Sequence record: NC_048845.1 | Origin: Escherichia phage flopper | Length of the DNA stretch: 52,092 nt | Reading direction: 5' to 3' (one strand) | Part shown: positions 10,900 to 28,468 of the stretch, piece after piece | Numbering within the stretch: position 1 is the first letter of the stretch | Layout of the letters: each line of letters opens with the position of its first letter | Program-made: the position numbers and the translations under genes | The notes under the pieces: model-generated | What the model saw: only the letters and a program-made list of their open reading frames with translations | Told to the model about the DNA's origin: nothing | Database searches by the model: none

Positions 10900-11115
10900 T
10901 CAAAAAATAAAAATTAATATTGCCACAATTCTAGTCTCGTTAATATTGAAACAATTTGAGTCTCATTAATTCTGTAGCAATATTGAAAATAAAAAAAAAA
11001 ATTATAAAAAAAAATTATTTCATAGTCGGACTTCTGTTCGAACAAATTTCGGCGAGATACAGCTGACCGACCATGAACGAATTTCTATCCAGGTACAGTT
11101 GACCGACCATGTACC
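10900..11115. repeat. A-tract plus 13-bp direct repeats between nrdB and the RNAP gene
   Basis: aaaaaaaaaattataaaaaaaaattattt (about 10981-11010); tgaccgaccatg x2 (about 11063-11075 and 11100-11112); tagcaatattg elements. Confidence 0.45.
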
Positions 11116-22198: not shown

Positions 22199-25100
22199 TT
22201 AACGTCTTTGTTGCGCACCGTTGTTCATGTTCATTTGTTGAGTCACAGTCTGACCACCAGGAATTGCAACTGTAGCAGAAGCAGTCTGGTTGTTGACCTT
22301 AGCATCAATCTTAACATTAACAACAGTTTGGGTTTGACCGTATGACATTCCATTACGAGTAAACCCTGTAGCACCTTCTTCCAGAGATTGAGAAGACTTG
22401 GACCATTCACGGAATGCTTTGACGCGATTCTGTGCTTGTACAGGAACAGCAGTCAGCCAATCCAATCCATTCTTATCAACAGCTTTGTCAACAGTGCCAG
22501 GACCATCTGTGTAAGCAGCCATTGCCTTTTCGTGGTCGCCATAACGCTTGTACATTGCGTCATAGTATTCACGACCAACTCGCGCATCATCTTCTGGAGT
22601 TCCATCAGACGGCCTGATTCCAAATCCTGGGTCACGGGCAGTCGAAGGGAGAATCTGCATTATCCCACGAGCACCAGTTGGACTTGTTACACGAGAACCA
22701 TCTTTGTTGTATTCACGACCGCCAGATTCCTCTTGGGCGATAAAGTCGTAAACATTTCCAGCAAATTCTCGCGTCTTATTCAGTCCAGTGCGTACACCGT
22801 CAAGTGCATCACTGCCAGCCTCAAATACAGAAGCACCATTAGATAAGACACTTTGTGGCACGTTGTAGCTTGGCAGCATCCGTGCGCGGCTTCCCTGCAA
22901 CATTTCCGATTGGGCCATACCTTCGGCAAAGTCGGAGTTTCTACCCGCTTCTACCACCGAACCAGCTTGCTCATGGCTGTATTCCGTGCGGTCATAGGCT
23001 CGCGCCATCCCATTCAGGCCAGCCATTTCAGCAGCACCTGCGATACGGGCCTGACTCCAGCCACGCTCCTTGCCCCTTTCCTGCATGATGCGAGCCAGGG
23101 CCACAGGGTCGCCGCCTGTCGCACGAATATCACCTATGGTGAGCAATCCCCTACTGCCGCGAACGATGTTCACAGCGGCGCTGGGGTCGCCGTTAAGCAT
23201 GGTGTTGTAGGCACTATGTGTGGTTTGATTCAGACGTGCCGCTTGTTGTGAATTGAGTCCTAACATCTCCAAGCCTTGCGACATAGAAGAATATTCATTA
23301 GGATTTATCACACCAGCATCAAGCGAGTTGCCGATAAAGTCATTCATGTATTCAGCAGCTTCATTGCCAATCTGAATGGCACCAATGCCTACGGCAGCCA
23401 TACGTCCCGCAGGAGTTGCCATCAATGCTTGCATAACTCCGTTGGTTGCTGAACCAATACTGCCACCAGCAATACCAGCAGCTAGTGAACCACCCATGCG
23501 ACCGTAGTCATCATAGTAGTTGCCACCACTTGTGAAGTTGCCGCCACGACCACCGCCACCGCCAGAATATCCACCGCCATTGGCAGCGTCAAATCTCTCA
23601 CGGTTCCAGCCCATTGAATCAGCTTTGCCGTCAAAGTCTGCATCTGCACCGATACCTTTCTGCCTGTTTTCTTCCTGAGCAGCAAGGATACCTTTCTTAA
23701 CAGACAATGCCATCGAGTCATTTCCGGTGTCACCATTACCAGTGGTTGCCGGAAAGTTTTGCTCGTGCAATACAAAGTTTGGCTTGTAGTCAGAGTAGGA
23801 TGCTTCTGGATTGTACGAAGAACGCGAACCAATAAACGGGTCTTCTGGGGTACCAGCAACAGCAGAATAGCCACGAGTAGACTTTTGACGAATATCTTTC
23901 CAGATTCCATCACCAGTCATTGCACTTCTTGCACCAGCAATCAGCTCTTCTCGCCCTAATCCAGCATTGTTTCTAACAAACTCTCGCCCAGCATCAAGAC
24001 GGCCAAGCACAGAATCAAGGCGATTTCGGTTTCTCTCGTACCATCCTTCGTCCTTCTCAATCCATTGTGAACGTGTTTCGTCGTTGATGGTTTGTGAGAA
24101 CAAAGCACGAGAACGGCCAGAAACGTGCATACCAAATTGAATTTGGTCCATGTAGTCTGGATGGTCGCCTTTAAGAAGGTCAGCAAACTTACCAGCCCTT
24201 TGCGGATTCTTGTGCTCCCAAATGGCATCATCCCCAATAAGACCATCAGGAGAATACATGAAGGCGGGATAGTTGTCATTTGTTATAGCGCCAGTTTGTT
24301 TGATATCAAATCCAAATTCCTTACTAACACGAGCGCGTGCTTCTTCTTCCGTCCTGTGACCATCAGCGAACATCTTCTTGGTGAAATCGCTGTGCTCTTT
24401 ACTACGAGATAGGCCAATCTTATCAATCATACCGGCCCAAGGTCGGGTGTATGGGTTGTTTCCTAAGAAGGTCCCAACAGTTGAGCCAGTTATGTCATAA
24501 TTTTTACGGAAGTCTAGCCACTCTTGGCTGCCCTGTTCTAAGTCGTGGAATCGGACGGGGGACTTGGAACGTCCTGTGCCATAGTCTGATACATCACGGA
24601 ATCCAGCACTATCCATGTTTGCAATCGCAAGTTCCTCGCGACGCATTCTTGCAGAGTTCCAATTGGTGGCCTCTCCAAGTTGTGCTGTAAAATCTGTAGA
24701 TGTTGACAGTGAATCTTTATCGACTCGCTGTGAAGCTCCCTTCATCTTTGGAATGCGAACAGGTTCGGCATCCATTTTATCATAAGTGTTTTCGAGGATG
24801 GCTCGAACACTTGATGCAGAATAAGCTGGCTCATCTGCAAGTTCAGAACGAAGGTTTTCGTATCCGCTTCTGGCTTCTTCCAAATCCGTGTAGCGTGTTG
24901 CACTATCAATAATCATGTCACGGTCAGATACTTCGTGACGAGTATTCAGCATCCCTTTGGAGCCAGAATAAACTTTGGCAGCAGATTTAACAGCTTCACT
25001 AATAGAAGAATACAAAGCCTTGCTTGGTGCACTCCAACCAGTGCCACCAGTTAATGATGCAGTGAGGGAGTATTCTGGATTTATGCCAGAACCATAAGAG

Positions 25101-25924
25101 CCAAGTGGTAGTCCAGATGCGTTAAGAGGTGCACGAGGATGCGCAATGCCAGAAACAATTGAAGGAGAACCAATCTGAGGGAGTGCATCCATGTAAGAAA
25201 TATGTGGGGCCGATTTATTTCCTACATTAGATGCGGATGTATACCCAACTTCCTTAAAGGCTGAGGGTAACTCTCGTTCCAGACGTTTGGCAACTCGACT
25301 AATGTCTCTTGCGTATTGTTCATGATTGCTGTATTGCTCACGGTCAACATACATGTGAGCCATGTAGTTATAGGAGTCAGCAATGTTTCCACGGTTGGTG
25401 GAGTATTCTGCCATAATATCCCCAGCATAGTGACCTGGGATTTCTGGCATAATGTCTTGATGCCCTTGCAAAGTATCTCGCATATAGGCATTAAGCATGT
25501 TGAAGTTACCTTGCGGTAAGTTCGGATTTGGCTTCGGCATGTGCATCCACACATCATCTGTGCTAACGCCAAGCCTTTCCATGTATGCGTGAACAGCTTC
25601 TACATGGTGTGATGGGCCATTCATTGCTGCATGAAATGCTTCTGTGTAGCCAGCACTTGAAAGCACTTGTGCAATGTGGGCAGCGTCTGAAATCATGGAA
25701 GAGTCACCCAAAGATTCAGTAATCAAACTGTCATCTTCGAACGACCCACCCATTAATTCTGCATTTGTATCCAGCCATCCCGAAGCAGCGCTCGCACTAA
25801 GTTGTTGAACCATGTGCGACTTCTTCATACCAGCATGGAAAGTCAGACCGCTTTGAGAGCCTAATGCAATTAACTCATTAACGCTCAACTTCATTAAATC
25901 TTTTTGATTAGCCATTGTCTTCAT
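22199..25924 (-). CDS. tape-measure-like multi-domain virion protein (nuclease + hydrophobic segment + SLT lytic transglycosylase)
   Basis: 1241 aa in the tape-measure position; aa ~460-575 QEWLDFRKNYDITGSTVGTFLGNNPY...SPDGLIGDDAIWEHK (YqaJ/lambda-exo-like); aa ~780-860 Gly/Ala-rich hydrophobic stretch; aa ~1055-1160 ESGGREYN...GIMQILPSTA...YY (SLT-like). Confidence 0.7.
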   Translation of the reverse strand: MKTMANQKDLMKLSVNELIALGSQSGLTFHAGMKKSHMVQQLSASAASGWLDTNAELMGGSFEDDSLITESLGDSSMISDAAHIAQVLSSAGYTEAFHAAMNGPSHHVEAVHAYMERLGVSTDDVWMHMPKPNPNLPQGNFNMLNAYMRDTLQGHQDIMPEIPGHYAGDIMAEYSTNRGNIADSYNYMAHMYVDREQYSNHEQYARDISRVAKRLERELPSAFKEVGYTSASNVGNKSAPHISYMDALPQIGSPSIVSGIAHPRAPLNASGLPLGSYGSGINPEYSLTASLTGGTGWSAPSKALYSSISEAVKSAAKVYSGSKGMLNTRHEVSDRDMIIDSATRYTDLEEARSGYENLRSELADEPAYSASSVRAILENTYDKMDAEPVRIPKMKGASQRVDKDSLSTSTDFTAQLGEATNWNSARMRREELAIANMDSAGFRDVSDYGTGRSKSPVRFHDLEQGSQEWLDFRKNYDITGSTVGTFLGNNPYTRPWAGMIDKIGLSRSKEHSDFTKKMFADGHRTEEEARARVSKEFGFDIKQTGAITNDNYPAFMYSPDGLIGDDAIWEHKNPQRAGKFADLLKGDHPDYMDQIQFGMHVSGRSRALFSQTINDETRSQWIEKDEGWYERNRNRLDSVLGRLDAGREFVRNNAGLGREELIAGARSAMTGDGIWKDIRQKSTRGYSAVAGTPEDPFIGSRSSYNPEASYSDYKPNFVLHEQNFPATTGNGDTGNDSMALSVKKGILAAQEENRQKGIGADADFDGKADSMGWNRERFDAANGGGYSGGGGGRGGNFTSGGNYYDDYGRMGGSLAAGIAGGSIGSATNGVMQALMATPAGRMAAVGIGAIQIGNEAAEYMNDFIGNSLDAGVINPNEYSSMSQGLEMLGLNSQQAARLNQTTHSAYNTMLNGDPSAAVNIVRGSRGLLTIGDIRATGGDPVALARIMQERGKERGWSQARIAGAAEMAGLNGMARAYDRTEYSHEQAGSVVEAGRNSDFAEGMAQSEMLQGSRARMLPSYNVPQSVLSNGASVFEAGSDALDGVRTGLNKTREFAGNVYDFIAQEESGGREYNKDGSRVTSPTGARGIMQILPSTARDPGFGIRPSDGTPEDDARVGREYYDAMYKRYGDHEKAMAAYTDGPGTVDKAVDKNGLDWLTAVPVQAQNRVKAFREWSKSSQSLEEGATGFTRNGMSYGQTQTVVNVKIDAKVNNQTASATVAIPGGQTVTQQMNMNNGAQQRR

Positions 25925-26542
25925 CTACTGGTTCGAGTTTCTTACGCAAATCGAGAATGTCGTGGAATAGCAATAAGTCCATAATCGAATAGGTTCCATC
26001 TTGCAACTCATGTAGCTTGCAGAGAGAACTGTCTTCGATTATAGGACGATGCAGAAAATATTTTATGTCGGGGAACAGGGATACTAAACTGTCTCCGGAC
26101 TCGAATTCTTCTGCTCTGCCAGCTTGGATGCTTCCTCCGCCTCCAATCGTCTCTGTTCGTTGATTTCGAGCCCTTGCTTGAAAAAATCAAGGAAGTTTGC
26201 TTCGAGCACGAAAGCAAAGACATGGCAAGACAACATCAATTCGCCATTGAACTGCATATCATATAATGCAGGTTTGATTTCTTGTCCATCTATGGACGAG
26301 TGCATGCTGATAACACGCTTAAACAATTCTGTGAATACGGTATGCTCTACTTGCTGCATCAAGTATATAATATCAGCGAAGTTATATTTACCTTCGATGA
26401 ATGGAAATACTCGTGAGCCTAACTTGCTTACCAACTCCGCGTGAAGAGACAGTGCAGCCGAAGCCGACAATTGTCGAACAACGACTAACACTGTTTCGCC
26501 TTTGGAGTTTGTGAATTCACGTTGAAGCAATTCACAAGCCAT
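25908..26542 (-). other. predicted -1 frameshift-extended tail chaperone product
   Basis: Slippery T TTT TTC at 26180..26186 in the zero frame; the -1 frame is open for 89 codons to TAA at 25908..25910, ending just inside the tape-measure start (25924). Confidence 0.5.
26084..26542 (-). CDS. tail assembly chaperone (zero-frame product)
   Basis: 152 aa between the tube and tape-measure genes; contains an in-frame T_TTT_TTC slippery heptamer. Confidence 0.6.
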   Translation of the reverse strand: MACELLQREFTNSKGETVLVVVRQLSASAALSLHAELVSKLGSRVFPFIEGKYNFADIIYLMQQVEHTVFTELFKRVISMHSSIDGQEIKPALYDMQFNGELMLSCHVFAFVLEANFLDFFKQGLEINEQRRLEAEEASKLAEQKNSSPETV

Positions 26543-26553
26543 ACTTACTCCAA

Positions 26554-27009
26554 TTAAACGCCAATCTCCGGATAAGAACCAGTCTTAATCTGGAGGCGCT
26601 CTACAAAGATAGACCACACGTTAGACGTGAAGGACACACCACGCTGAATTGCAGGTTGCTGCAAAATAGCGCCGTTTACACCATTGACCAGCACATCACC
26701 CATCTTGTCGACAATCTGAATCTGGAGCGGTTGCCACAGAGATTTGTTGCCAGACAGACCAGTTGCCTGAGTTAACTGAGCACGGCTGTACAAGATTTCG
26801 TTCCAGTCTGCGGTTTGCAGAAGCGGGAAAGTAATAGTACCAGACAAGTCAGCCGTAGTAGCTACAGCCAACTTACCATACGCGTCAATAACAGGTAGGT
26901 GTTGAGGTGCGTTACGACGAGCAGTGATGATGGAATTACCAGAGGTAAAACCATCTACACGAGCACCGTCGATAATGAGGTCGGTATTATAGAAAGAATA
27001 TTGTTTCAC
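26554..27009 (-). CDS. tail tube protein
   Basis: 151 aa directly downstream of the sheath gene. Confidence 0.6.
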   Translation of the reverse strand: MKQYSFYNTDLIIDGARVDGFTSGNSIITARRNAPQHLPVIDAYGKLAVATTADLSGTITFPLLQTADWNEILYSRAQLTQATGLSGNKSLWQPLQIQIVDKMGDVLVNGVNGAILQQPAIQRGVSFTSNVWSIFVERLQIKTGSYPEIGV

Positions 27010-27019
27010 TTATCGCACC

Positions 27020-28468
27020 TTACTGAACGAAGTTGCCAGAGATAACTGCACCCTGTAATGCGCCAGAGCCAATTGCAATGAAGGAAGTGCCTTCCCAGAT
27101 ACGAGCACCTTTCTGAGATTGCATCAGAGCCAAGTCAGTAGACAAGACTTTGTAACCATCAGGATAGAAGTTGCCTTCATTGTCGTAACCTGGAGCAATC
27201 AGACCATTGGTCACTGCCAGTTCCAGAGCCAGGGTTACTTGCTGGTTCACCAGTGCAACACCAGTGTCCGTCCAAGGAATCTTGGTAGTGGAAGTGTAGA
27301 ACAGGTTGAACACGTTAGCACGAATCTTGGAGGTTAGCCAAGAAACACCCTGCACGGTATCGAACCAAGTACCGTCAGCCATCTTGCCGTTGTAGAACAT
27401 AGTGTTCCCACCAACGTTGATGAATGCGTTACCGTTAACACGCTCAAGTGCAGCAAGCTGGTTCGGGGACAAGTCAGCAGTCTTGATAGCTGGACCTTGC
27501 TTAAACGCCAGAACGAGCGAGGAGTTTGCAACGTTGAAGTTAACAGTAGATGCACGACCCAGGATAGAAATCTCTGGATATTCGTCGCCATTGTCGGAAG
27601 CATCATACACCAGCAGGGTGCGCTGTAGATTCTGCTCTTTAGCCCGCTTGAAGCTAGATTCAGCACCAGCAACCAGAATCTGTTTATCACTGTCAGCCCA
27701 GCCAAACACTTTCTCGTTTGCTTCTGCCCACTTGGCAACAGTCATTTGAACATTGCCAGCAGCACTGCCACGATATTTGCGGTCGATTGCAACGAAGAAG
27801 AAGTTGAACGTCGAGTTCAAGATTGCGTTCAGGTCTGTTCCTACAGATACTTCATCAGTGCCATGCACATATACCGGACTTGAATCTGCATCAAGTTCGA
27901 ATGCTGGAGCAGCAGAGCCGTATACATCACCGATAATGGAGTTAGAGCCTTTAGACTCGGTCACAACTTTAAAGGTGCCTTCGCTATGAGTCATGGTTAC
28001 GGGAATACCCGCAGCAACCAGTGCAGCGTTTGCCATAGAGGCAGCAGCATCAAAGTCAGAGGCCGAAGAGAAGTTGATTGGGGCCGTAGAATGGTCTACA
28101 CCATCAACGTTAATAGACAGCACACCGTTAGTAAGCGCAGTGATAGTTCCCAGAGTTGCAGCAGCAGATGCAGTAACAGTGCCTGGAGTTGCCGGAGTAA
28201 CATCTTCATGAGTGATAGCACCCACGAGGAAATACTTCGGAGTCGGTTTCTGAGAGTACCATGCCAAAGCAGCTTGGTAGATTTCACCAGATGGGAAATC
28301 GGCAGAAACAGCAGCCATGCTGGAATACTGGCGAACAGGAACACGTTCACCTGGTGCTGGAACAAACTGCTTGCTCAAGAACAGTAGCGGACCAAAACCT
28401 TCCACGGCAACAGCGTTAGGGGATACCGCGATGTTGACCTGGATGATATCGGAAATTGGAATTGCCAT
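27020..28468 (-). CDS. contractile tail sheath protein
   Basis: 482 aa preceding the tube and chaperone genes in the myovirus-type order. Confidence 0.65.
   Translation of the reverse strand: MAIPISDIIQVNIAVSPNAVAVEGFGPLLFLSKQFVPAPGERVPVRQYSSMAAVSADFPSGEIYQAALAWYSQKPTPKYFLVGAITHEDVTPATPGTVTASAAATLGTITALTNGVLSINVDGVDHSTAPINFSSASDFDAAASMANAALVAAGIPVTMTHSEGTFKVVTESKGSNSIIGDVYGSAAPAFELDADSSPVYVHGTDEVSVGTDLNAILNSTFNFFFVAIDRKYRGSAAGNVQMTVAKWAEANEKVFGWADSDKQILVAGAESSFKRAKEQNLQRTLLVYDASDNGDEYPEISILGRASTVNFNVANSSLVLAFKQGPAIKTADLSPNQLAALERVNGNAFINVGGNTMFYNGKMADGTWFDTVQGVSWLTSKIRANVFNLFYTSTTKIPWTDTGVALVNQQVTLALELAVTNGLIAPGYDNEGNFYPDGYKVLSTDLALMQSQKGARIWEGTSFIAIGSGALQGAVISGNFVQ

Follow-up and report, generated by a model that had tools for sequence, protein, structure and literature searches.

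Escherichia phage flopper (sequence record NC_048845.1) is a phiEcoM-GJ1-like myovirus of the Chaseviridae, and the subject of this work is its tail assembly chaperone gene, hereafter G, together with a second reading frame, hereafter T, that overlaps the 3′ end of G in the −1 frame. The stretch of DNA that was analysed comprises 52,092 nt and is called the window throughout; all the genes concerned are on its minus strand. From the comparison of this region with its relatives, we consider it highly probable that this chaperone gene of the Chaseviridae contains a programmed −1 ribosomal frameshift of the G/GT type, by which a chaperone (G) and a longer fusion protein (GT) would be produced from one start. 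A preliminary description of the same DNA had pointed to a T_TTT_TTC heptamer in the zero frame of a chaperone open reading frame (ORF) and to an arrangement of the conserved G/GT type. Both observations were borne out, as the heptamer is read in frame at 26186-26180, the product of the ORF matches Pfam Phage_TAC_15 (PF21822; E 2.9e-18, 67.1 bits, with a cutoff of 22) and the tail assembly chaperone family phrog_11820 (E 2.5e-75), and the gene context, the T homologues in the −1 frame and 84 out of 85 heptamers agree with the G/GT arrangement.

Frame layout and conservation of the heptamer

The elements of the site, as they are arranged in the window, are the following:

26084-26542, minus strand: chaperone gene G in the zero frame, with an ATG start, 152 amino acids (aa) and a TAG stop (26086-26084); predicted protein of 17.3 kDa and isoelectric point 5.1.
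26180-26186, minus strand: slippery heptamer T_TTT_TTC (U_UUU_UUC in the mRNA), made up of the last base of codon 119 plus Phe120 and Phe121.
26187-26189, minus strand: TGA stop of the −1 frame, abutting the heptamer on its 5′ side.
25908-26180, minus strand: extension T in the −1 frame, 90 codons (translated as QARARNQRTE...VDEDNG) followed by TAA (25910-25908); its product matches phrog_4364 (E 1.4e-18).
26084-26186, minus strand: overlap between G and T, 103 nt that belong, according to this layout, to the zero frame and the −1 frame alike.

Codons 119-121 of G are GAT TTT TTC (the local zero-frame reading being GAA GCA AAC TTC CTT GAT TTT TTC AAG CAA GGG), which places the heptamer in the exact X_XXY_YYZ phase, and no other zero-frame heptamer of this form is found in the 103-nt overlap. 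Moreover, TTTTTTC occurs only once in the whole window, and TTTTTTY is depleted five-fold when both strands are counted (9 occurrences, compared with 45.7 +/- 9.1 expected). The remaining 8 occurrences of TTTTTTY all belong to a single AT-rich intergenic tract (10991-11014, minus strand), which contains minus-strand T9 and T11 runs.

Because the TGA at 26189-26187 directly precedes the heptamer, the −1 frame can be entered only at the heptamer or after it, and the same layout, with TGA followed by the heptamer, is also present in phiEcoM-GJ1, 2KOFFS, PM1, PYps3T, PYps23T and Mangalitsa. The first codon of the extension is CAA (26180-26178), which shares the C of the heptamer, and the frame continues up to the TAA at 25910-25908. 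The preliminary description had given this same stop, which stands, and an open frame of 89 codons, which should be corrected to 90 sense codons. It had also placed the stop inside the ORF of the tape measure protein (TMP), and this is right if that ORF is counted from its first ATG (25924), an ATG that, among the relatives compared, is present only in the window and in phiEcoM-GJ1. The TMP start that is conserved across relatives is, however, the ATG at 25915-25913, from which an 8-nt overlap (ATGGCTAA) with the T stop results. In most relatives, the T stop likewise overlaps or abuts the TMP start, with TAATG or ATGA overlaps in other clades.

If the shift takes place at the heptamer, the predicted GT fusion would consist of residues 1-121 of G followed by the 90 residues of the extension, that is, 211 aa and 23.9 kDa. 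Its predicted junction peptide is ANFLDFFQARARNQRTE, the counterpart in G being ANFLDFFKQGLE. In GT, the acidic 31-aa tail of G would be exchanged for a Gly-rich linker and the conserved T domain.

In the mechanism that we propose, most ribosomes would read G (26542-26084) up to its TAG and produce the 152-aa chaperone, while a minority would slip when one tRNA-Phe is in the P site, on the UUU of codon 120, and another is in the A site, on the UUC of codon 121. The two tRNA-Phe would then shift back one base and re-pair with UUU UUU, and this tandem slippage is the most likely mechanism. Decoding would resume at CAA (26180-26178) and proceed for 90 codons to the TAA (25910-25908), so that the resulting 211-aa GT would be composed of the chaperone domain (1-121), the Gly-rich linker and a T domain of ~60 aa. 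No stimulator is evident in the sequence, and the predicted efficiency of frameshifting is probably a few percent. The roles of G and GT are inferred by analogy with phage lambda: G and the G part of GT would coat the tape measure protein, and the T domain would recruit the tube protein and thus start the polymerisation of the tube, neither G nor GT being expected in the virion.

A further line of evidence is provided by the use of synonymous codons in G. As a measure of dual coding, we used the fraction of identical codons among the pairs that share the same amino acid in a codon alignment of 26 distinct G ORFs. It amounts to 0.47 upstream of the heptamer (codons 1-118), rises to 0.94 just after it (codons 122-134) and is 0.77 in the remainder of G (codons 135-152), with similar amino-acid identities over the three segments (0.56, 0.64 and 0.43, respectively). 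As the identical-codon fraction jumps from 0.47 to 0.94 at the heptamer, synonymous change is suppressed from there on, a pattern that decoding of the −1 frame from this point would be expected to produce.

The relationship between the two frames was also examined by tblastn in 17 GenBank relatives, with G identities from 100% down to ~32%, which include phages of Escherichia, Shigella, Yersinia, Pectobacterium, Erwinia, Proteus, Aeromonas, Vibrio and Shewanella and a metagenomic myovirus. Relative to G, the conserved C-terminal 60 aa of the extension are encoded in the −1 frame in every one of the 17. When the −1 fusion was compared by tblastn with 50,697 phage genomes, 108 records matched and, among the matches listed, every one that spans both halves of the fusion splits into two frames. 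A scan of IMG/VR with the G alignment provided 64 further loci, with identities down to ~25%, and T is in the −1 frame in every one of these loci in which T homology can be detected. Altogether, 85 loci were considered. Grouped by the identity of their chaperone core, they form 43 clusters at 70% and 24 at 50%. In 70/70 distinct relatives, 73-110 open codons (median 90) follow the site in the −1 frame.

The heptamer itself is conserved to a similar extent. T_TTT_TTY is found at the homologous position in 16 of the 17 GenBank relatives, as TTTTTTC in 15 of them and as TTTTTTT in ctfzr933; the exception is Erwinia phage Faunus, which has G_TTT_TTC and so retains the U_UUC tetramer. All 64 IMG/VR loci have an in-phase TTTTTTC or TTTTTTT, followed by a −1 extension of 73-110 aa; as the peptide pattern by which these loci were retrieved required ...FF, the presence of the Phe-Phe pair in them is due to ascertainment, but the choice of codons is not. 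Over the 85 loci, TTTTTTC is found 70 times, TTTTTTT 14 times and GTTTTTC once, which gives T_TTT_TTY in 84/85. The preliminary description had suggested looking for conservation of the heptamer in relatives, and this result is the opposite of a disruption. The chaperone domain has Phe at positions 120 and 121 without exception. Among the 26 G ORFs, codon 120 is always TTT (26/26) and codon 121 is always TTC (26/26), and codon 119 ends in T in 25/26 close relatives. This choice is not the consequence of a general bias, since Phe is encoded elsewhere in the same ORFs by a mixture of TTC (165) and TTT (118).

Alternative explanations of the site

Two features of the window, both on the minus strand and within the region discussed above, are relevant to other ways of explaining the site:

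26008-26223, minus strand: ORF in the +1 frame from the ORF list, 71 aa with an ATG start; a peptide expected from this frame is SKGSKSTNRDDWRRRK...
26127-26144, minus strand: internal GGAGGCGGAGG (26144-26134) followed by ATC (26129-26127), the non-canonical "start" of gp61 in the RefSeq record of phiEcoM-GJ1.

The second of these contains a tandem Shine-Dalgarno (SD)-like sequence within the G/T overlap. It is conserved in the Cleopatravirinae and is read as LEAEE in the zero frame and as IGGGG(S) in the −1 frame.

It could be argued that no recoding takes place, the heptamer merely encoding a conserved Phe-Phe pair and the −1 ORF being a non-functional by-product, as the invariant Phe120 and Phe121 do force some T-richness at the site. 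Given Asp/Ala/Ser-Phe-Phe, however, NNT TTT TTY would be expected in ~20% of independent lineages, and it was found in 84/85 loci, representing 24 clusters. Additionally, the −1 domain is conserved down to ~30% G identity, is DUF6889-like and matches phrog_4364, and the dual-coding signature (0.47 -> 0.94) is present, so that we give this explanation almost no credence. The same holds for a +1 frameshift into the ORF at 26008-26223, or for its independent expression, which is to be regarded as a practically negligible possibility. The preliminary description had noticed this shorter ORF, which does exist, and had asked that the direction of the shift be confirmed; the direction is −1. The +1 frame is open for 56 codons from the site in the window and its closest relatives, but across the 70 distinct relatives its open length has a median of 8 codons and falls to 0 at the lowest, and, as it is not conserved in them, the +1 ORF of the window can be attributed to chance. 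No homologue or family match was found for this ORF, and a shift into it would leave 83 nt of non-coding sequence before the TMP gene, while the −1 frame ends on the TMP start.

A more substantial proposal is that T is a separate small gene with its own internal start, as in the annotation of gp61 of phiEcoM-GJ1 (coding sequence 2475-2696 in the locus that we call L001), and that no G-T fusion is made. A small coding sequence in the −1 frame is indeed annotated in 6/20 records examined, and in the clade of flopper an ATC or ATT of the −1 frame is preceded, at a distance of 4 nt, by a strong SD-like GGAGGCGGAGG. The annotated starts are, however, at non-homologous positions (yielding products of 37-73 aa), and all of them except that of gp61 fall within the conserved T domain. 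In the window, the first ATG, GTG or TTG of the extension is a TTG at codon 58/90, which is inside this domain and has no SD, and four relatives have no canonical start at all in the extension. The motif of SD plus ATY is absent from the Nefertitivirinae and from distant relatives, which still keep the heptamer and T. Furthermore, synonymous change is already suppressed from the heptamer, which precedes the ATC by 51 nt, and the 70/70 relatives mentioned above have a −1 frame that is open past the heptamer, all of which makes a separate T gene very improbable. Transcriptional slippage must also be considered: RNA polymerase (that of the host or, if there is one, that of the phage) would add an extra U in the T6 run, and a subset of the mRNAs would encode G-T in one frame. 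There is a homopolymer at the site (T6 here, T7 in 14/85 relatives), the avoidance of T runs elsewhere in the window fits either kind of slippage, and the protein would be identical, with the same Asp-Phe-Phe-Gln-Ala junction, for which reason sequence analysis cannot separate ribosomal from transcriptional slippage. Nevertheless, bacterial transcriptional slippage has been described for runs of ~9 A or T (PMC5009743), and the run is T6 here and T5 to T7 in relatives. Faunus, with only T5, has lost nothing of the G/T arrangement and still has the U_UUC tetramer, on which a single tRNA could slip in the ribosome. In addition, the run is always in the exact X_XXY_YYZ phase, and the preceding codon ends in T in 25/26 close relatives. 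On balance, slippage of the polymerase appears quite unlikely as the source of the fusion, and programmed −1 ribosomal frameshifting is the reading that we retain.

Stimulatory elements, the T domain and points against frameshifting

Frameshift sites may be assisted by neighbouring sequences, and the relatives of flopper differ in this regard. An SD-like GAGG or GGAGG is located ~13 nt 5′ of the heptamer in 37/59 distinct upstream contexts of relatives. This element is formed by the GAG codon of Glu114 and the following G, as in the relatives catalogued here as L009, L022 and L030-L081, and its equivalent in the window is at 26201-26205. GAG is used at codon 114 in 40/60 sequences, compared with ~39% of the other Glu codons, a comparison in which kinship is not controlled. 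The clade of the window carries GAAGCA in place of GAGG or GGAGG. To judge from these sequences, the GAGG/GGAGG element upstream of the heptamer may be a frameshift stimulator that was lost in the clade of flopper.

Just 3′ of the heptamer, ~27 nt (AAGCAAGGGCTCGAAATSAACGAACAG) are almost invariant, with a synonymous identity of 0.94. A broader hypothesis can be built on these observations, in which T_TTT_TTY, set in the invariant Phe-Phe, would be ancient and family-defining for Phage_TAC_15/DUF6889, stimulators would turn over between clades, and the Carltongylesvirus clade, having lost the GAGG or GGAGG, would use these ~27 nt as a sequence-specific stimulator without a hairpin, so that dual coding would not be the sole cause of their conservation. 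As a whole, this hypothesis is speculative and we regard it as unlikely.

Two further features are needed for the points that follow, the first from the minimum free energy (MFE) fold and the second from tblastn and alignment:

26097-26173, minus strand: candidate long-range stem of 9 bp, pairing GGGCUCGAA (26173-26165) with UUCGAGUCC (26105-26097).
25911-26090, minus strand: conserved T domain (SLVSLFPDIKYFLHRPIIEDSSLCKLHELQDGTYSIMDLLLFHDILDLRKKL...), ~60 aa, with a DUF6889-like core at ~26021-25947.

Several results weigh against programmed frameshifting at the flopper site. In the window, no SD-like motif (GGAG, GAGG or AGGA) is present 4-17 nt upstream of the heptamer (...CTCGAAGCAAACTTCCTTGA). 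The candidate stem, the 5′ arm of which begins 6 nt past the heptamer, was rejected as a stimulator: the z-score of the single-sequence fold is only -1.16, RNAalifold yielded no consensus pairs on 20 Cleopatravirinae-type sequences, and covariation is lacking, with 65.6% of cells paired vs 64.8% in shuffles and with 171/500 shuffles reaching the observed score. Over 70 relatives, the MFE z-score downstream of the heptamer (-0.99) is no different from those of the upstream and far-downstream control windows (-0.67 and -1.05, respectively). Searches of the literature on Chaseviridae and phiEcoM-GJ1 brought up neither a report of a chaperone frameshift nor any proteomic, ribosome-profiling or reporter evidence for GT, and the literature on TTTTTTC at tail-assembly frameshift sites yielded nothing relevant to GT in the Chaseviridae. 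The T of the window reaches 23.4 bits (E 4.9e-5) against Pfam DUF6889 (PF21829), slightly below the gathering cutoff of 23.9, and the 64 IMG/VR loci were, as mentioned above, retrieved by a peptide pattern ending in FF. Finally, no natural in-frame G-T fusion was found among 46 G and 26 T homologues; such a fusion would independently prove that T acts at the C-terminal end of G.

Concerning the stem, its 3′ arm (UUCGAGUCC) is missing from Y2, Fifi44, Faunus, Myduc and others, and a scan of the region with Rfam returned no match.

The T domains of relatives score 37.6 bits (VPs20), 32.6 bits (L058) and 23.9 bits (Y2) against DUF6889. In a search of 1.84 billion representative proteins, the homologues of the T domain are all ORFs of 35-110 aa, with the exception of two repeat-protein artefacts; these two long matches were checked, and P0048 is a repeat protein unrelated to T. 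By comparison, every one of the 46 G homologues is ~150 aa. With homologues of 35-110 aa vs ~150 aa, T is never a normal-looking gene and is never fused in frame with G. Other searches for information on the two proteins were negative. For instance, the AlphaFold2 model of the 211-aa fusion, obtained without an alignment, has a mean predicted local distance difference test score (pLDDT) of 38.9 and is unusable, the profile search of G against PDB sequences gave no meaningful match, and NCBIfam has no model that matches G or GT.

Gene context, annotation and known systems

The 1.4-kb region is 97-99% identical to those of the Carltongylesvirus phages phiEcoM-GJ1, ST32 and DE15 (Chaseviridae). 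The order of genes on the minus strand is sheath, tube, G, T, the gene in the TMP position and baseplate hub, so that the G and T pair sits between the tube gene and the TMP-position gene. The neighbouring genes are the following:

27020-28468, minus strand: tail sheath gene, 482 aa, matching phrog_205 tail sheath (E 1.6e-100) and Pfam DUF3383.
26554-27009, minus strand: tail tube gene, 151 aa, matching phrog_280 (E 3e-32), directly upstream of G.
22199-25924, minus strand: TMP-position gene from the ORF list, 1241 aa when counted from its first ATG, matching phrog_19855, with an SLT domain and a YqaJ domain.

The tube protein has a weak match to KPP10_Orf10 that is below the cutoff (E 3e-4, 21.1 bits; cutoff 25), and its homologue is labelled as tail tube in the records of Mangalitsa and PYps23T. 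In the interval from G to the TMP-position gene, neither a promoter-like site nor a minus-strand terminator was found.

Two observations on this neighbourhood can be added. The TMP-position protein contains a YqaJ-like viral recombinase/exonuclease domain (PF09588; 52.4 bits, cutoff 22) and also matches RecE-like exonuclease families of PHROG, with a C-terminal SLT lytic transglycosylase domain (the residues listed for YqaJ and SLT being 468-604 and 1061-1152, respectively); a nuclease-like domain within a protein in the tape-measure position is unusual. On the other hand, GenBank PP952070.1, described as "Staphylococcus phage Pel53" (host Staphylococcus hyicus), has DNA that is 95% identical to this E. 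coli Carltongylesvirus region and carries the same G/T arrangement, and its host label looks doubtful.

With regard to annotation, none of the 20 GenBank/RefSeq Chaseviridae records examined joins G and T (0/20), and T is either absent from them or cut short by an arbitrarily chosen start and called a "hypothetical protein". An annotation rule for the family and its metagenomic relatives can be formulated, in which Phage_TAC_15 is identified, ...N[FY]x[DAS]FF encoded as NNT TTT TTY is then located, and a −1 shift is applied. DUF6889 would likely gain a role, that of the T domain of the frameshift product. As the GT:G ratio is critical for lambda tail assembly, the site is also relevant when these phages, relatives of which infect E. 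coli, Erwinia and Aeromonas, are re-coded or codon-optimised for therapy or biocontrol; by analogy, synonymous changes in the heptamer would probably be lethal to the phage. Almost every long-tailed phage is expected to have a G/GT frameshift and, consequently, the finding changes no concept and would not surprise a specialist, its usefulness being in annotation and in the role of DUF6889.

The heptamer itself has precedents in bacteria. U_UU.U_UU.C, within H_HH.U_UU.Y, is listed among the most efficient classes of −1 motifs in E. coli (Sharma et al. 2014, PMC4066793) and is used by some insertion sequence (IS) elements (PMC4066793). U_UU.C ranks second among the −1 tetramers in E. coli (PMC4066793), which accounts for the GTTTTTC variant of Faunus. 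In IS3, IS911 and dnaX, the motif comes with an SD upstream, with a hairpin or pseudoknot downstream, or with both, whereas neither is supported at the flopper site.

All the features of the G/GT class that can be examined in a sequence (Xu, Hendrix & Duda 2004) are seen in flopper; for instance, the second ORF runs over the 3′ end of G in the −1 frame and has neither a start nor an SD of its own. In lambda, the tape measure protein is bound by the G part and the major tail protein by the T domain (PMC5009743), G and GT are made in a fixed ratio of ~30:1, and virions contain neither of them (Levin, Hendrix & Casjens 1993; Xu et al. 2013, 2014; PMC5009743). The likeness to flopper resides in the position of the chaperone gene before the tape measure gene and in a low-level −1 shift, predicted in the case of flopper, near its 3′ end that adds a T domain. 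By contrast, lambda is a siphovirus that uses G_GGA_AAG with tRNA-Lys, and there is no detectable sequence similarity between the two systems, the roles assigned in flopper resting on the analogy.

Phage P2 offers a closer parallel. Its E/E+E′ pair is produced by a −1 shift at T_TTT_TTG, which lacks a downstream structure (Christie et al. 2002; Xu, Hendrix & Duda 2004; PMC3091744). Both phages have a contractile tail and, as predicted in the case of flopper, two products from one start, with a −1 shift at a T6-based heptamer. In both, the gene pair is located between the major tail (tube) and tape measure genes, and a downstream RNA structure was found in neither. The product sizes are similarly related, with 91 and 142 aa in P2 and 152 and 211 aa (predicted) in flopper. 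There are also differences: the heptamer ends in G in P2 but in C or T in the family of flopper, the G of flopper belongs to Phage_TAC_15, with no match to P2-type families in the Pfam scans, its T is DUF6889-like, and flopper is a lytic member of the Chaseviridae, known here from its sequence, while P2-like phages are temperate. Judged by these sequence features, the E/E+E′ pair of P2, also a myovirus, the heptamer of which is likewise built on T6 and lacks a downstream structure, is the closest analogue, and the putative flopper site is an unannotated addition to the class formed by lambda G/GT and P2 E/E+E′.

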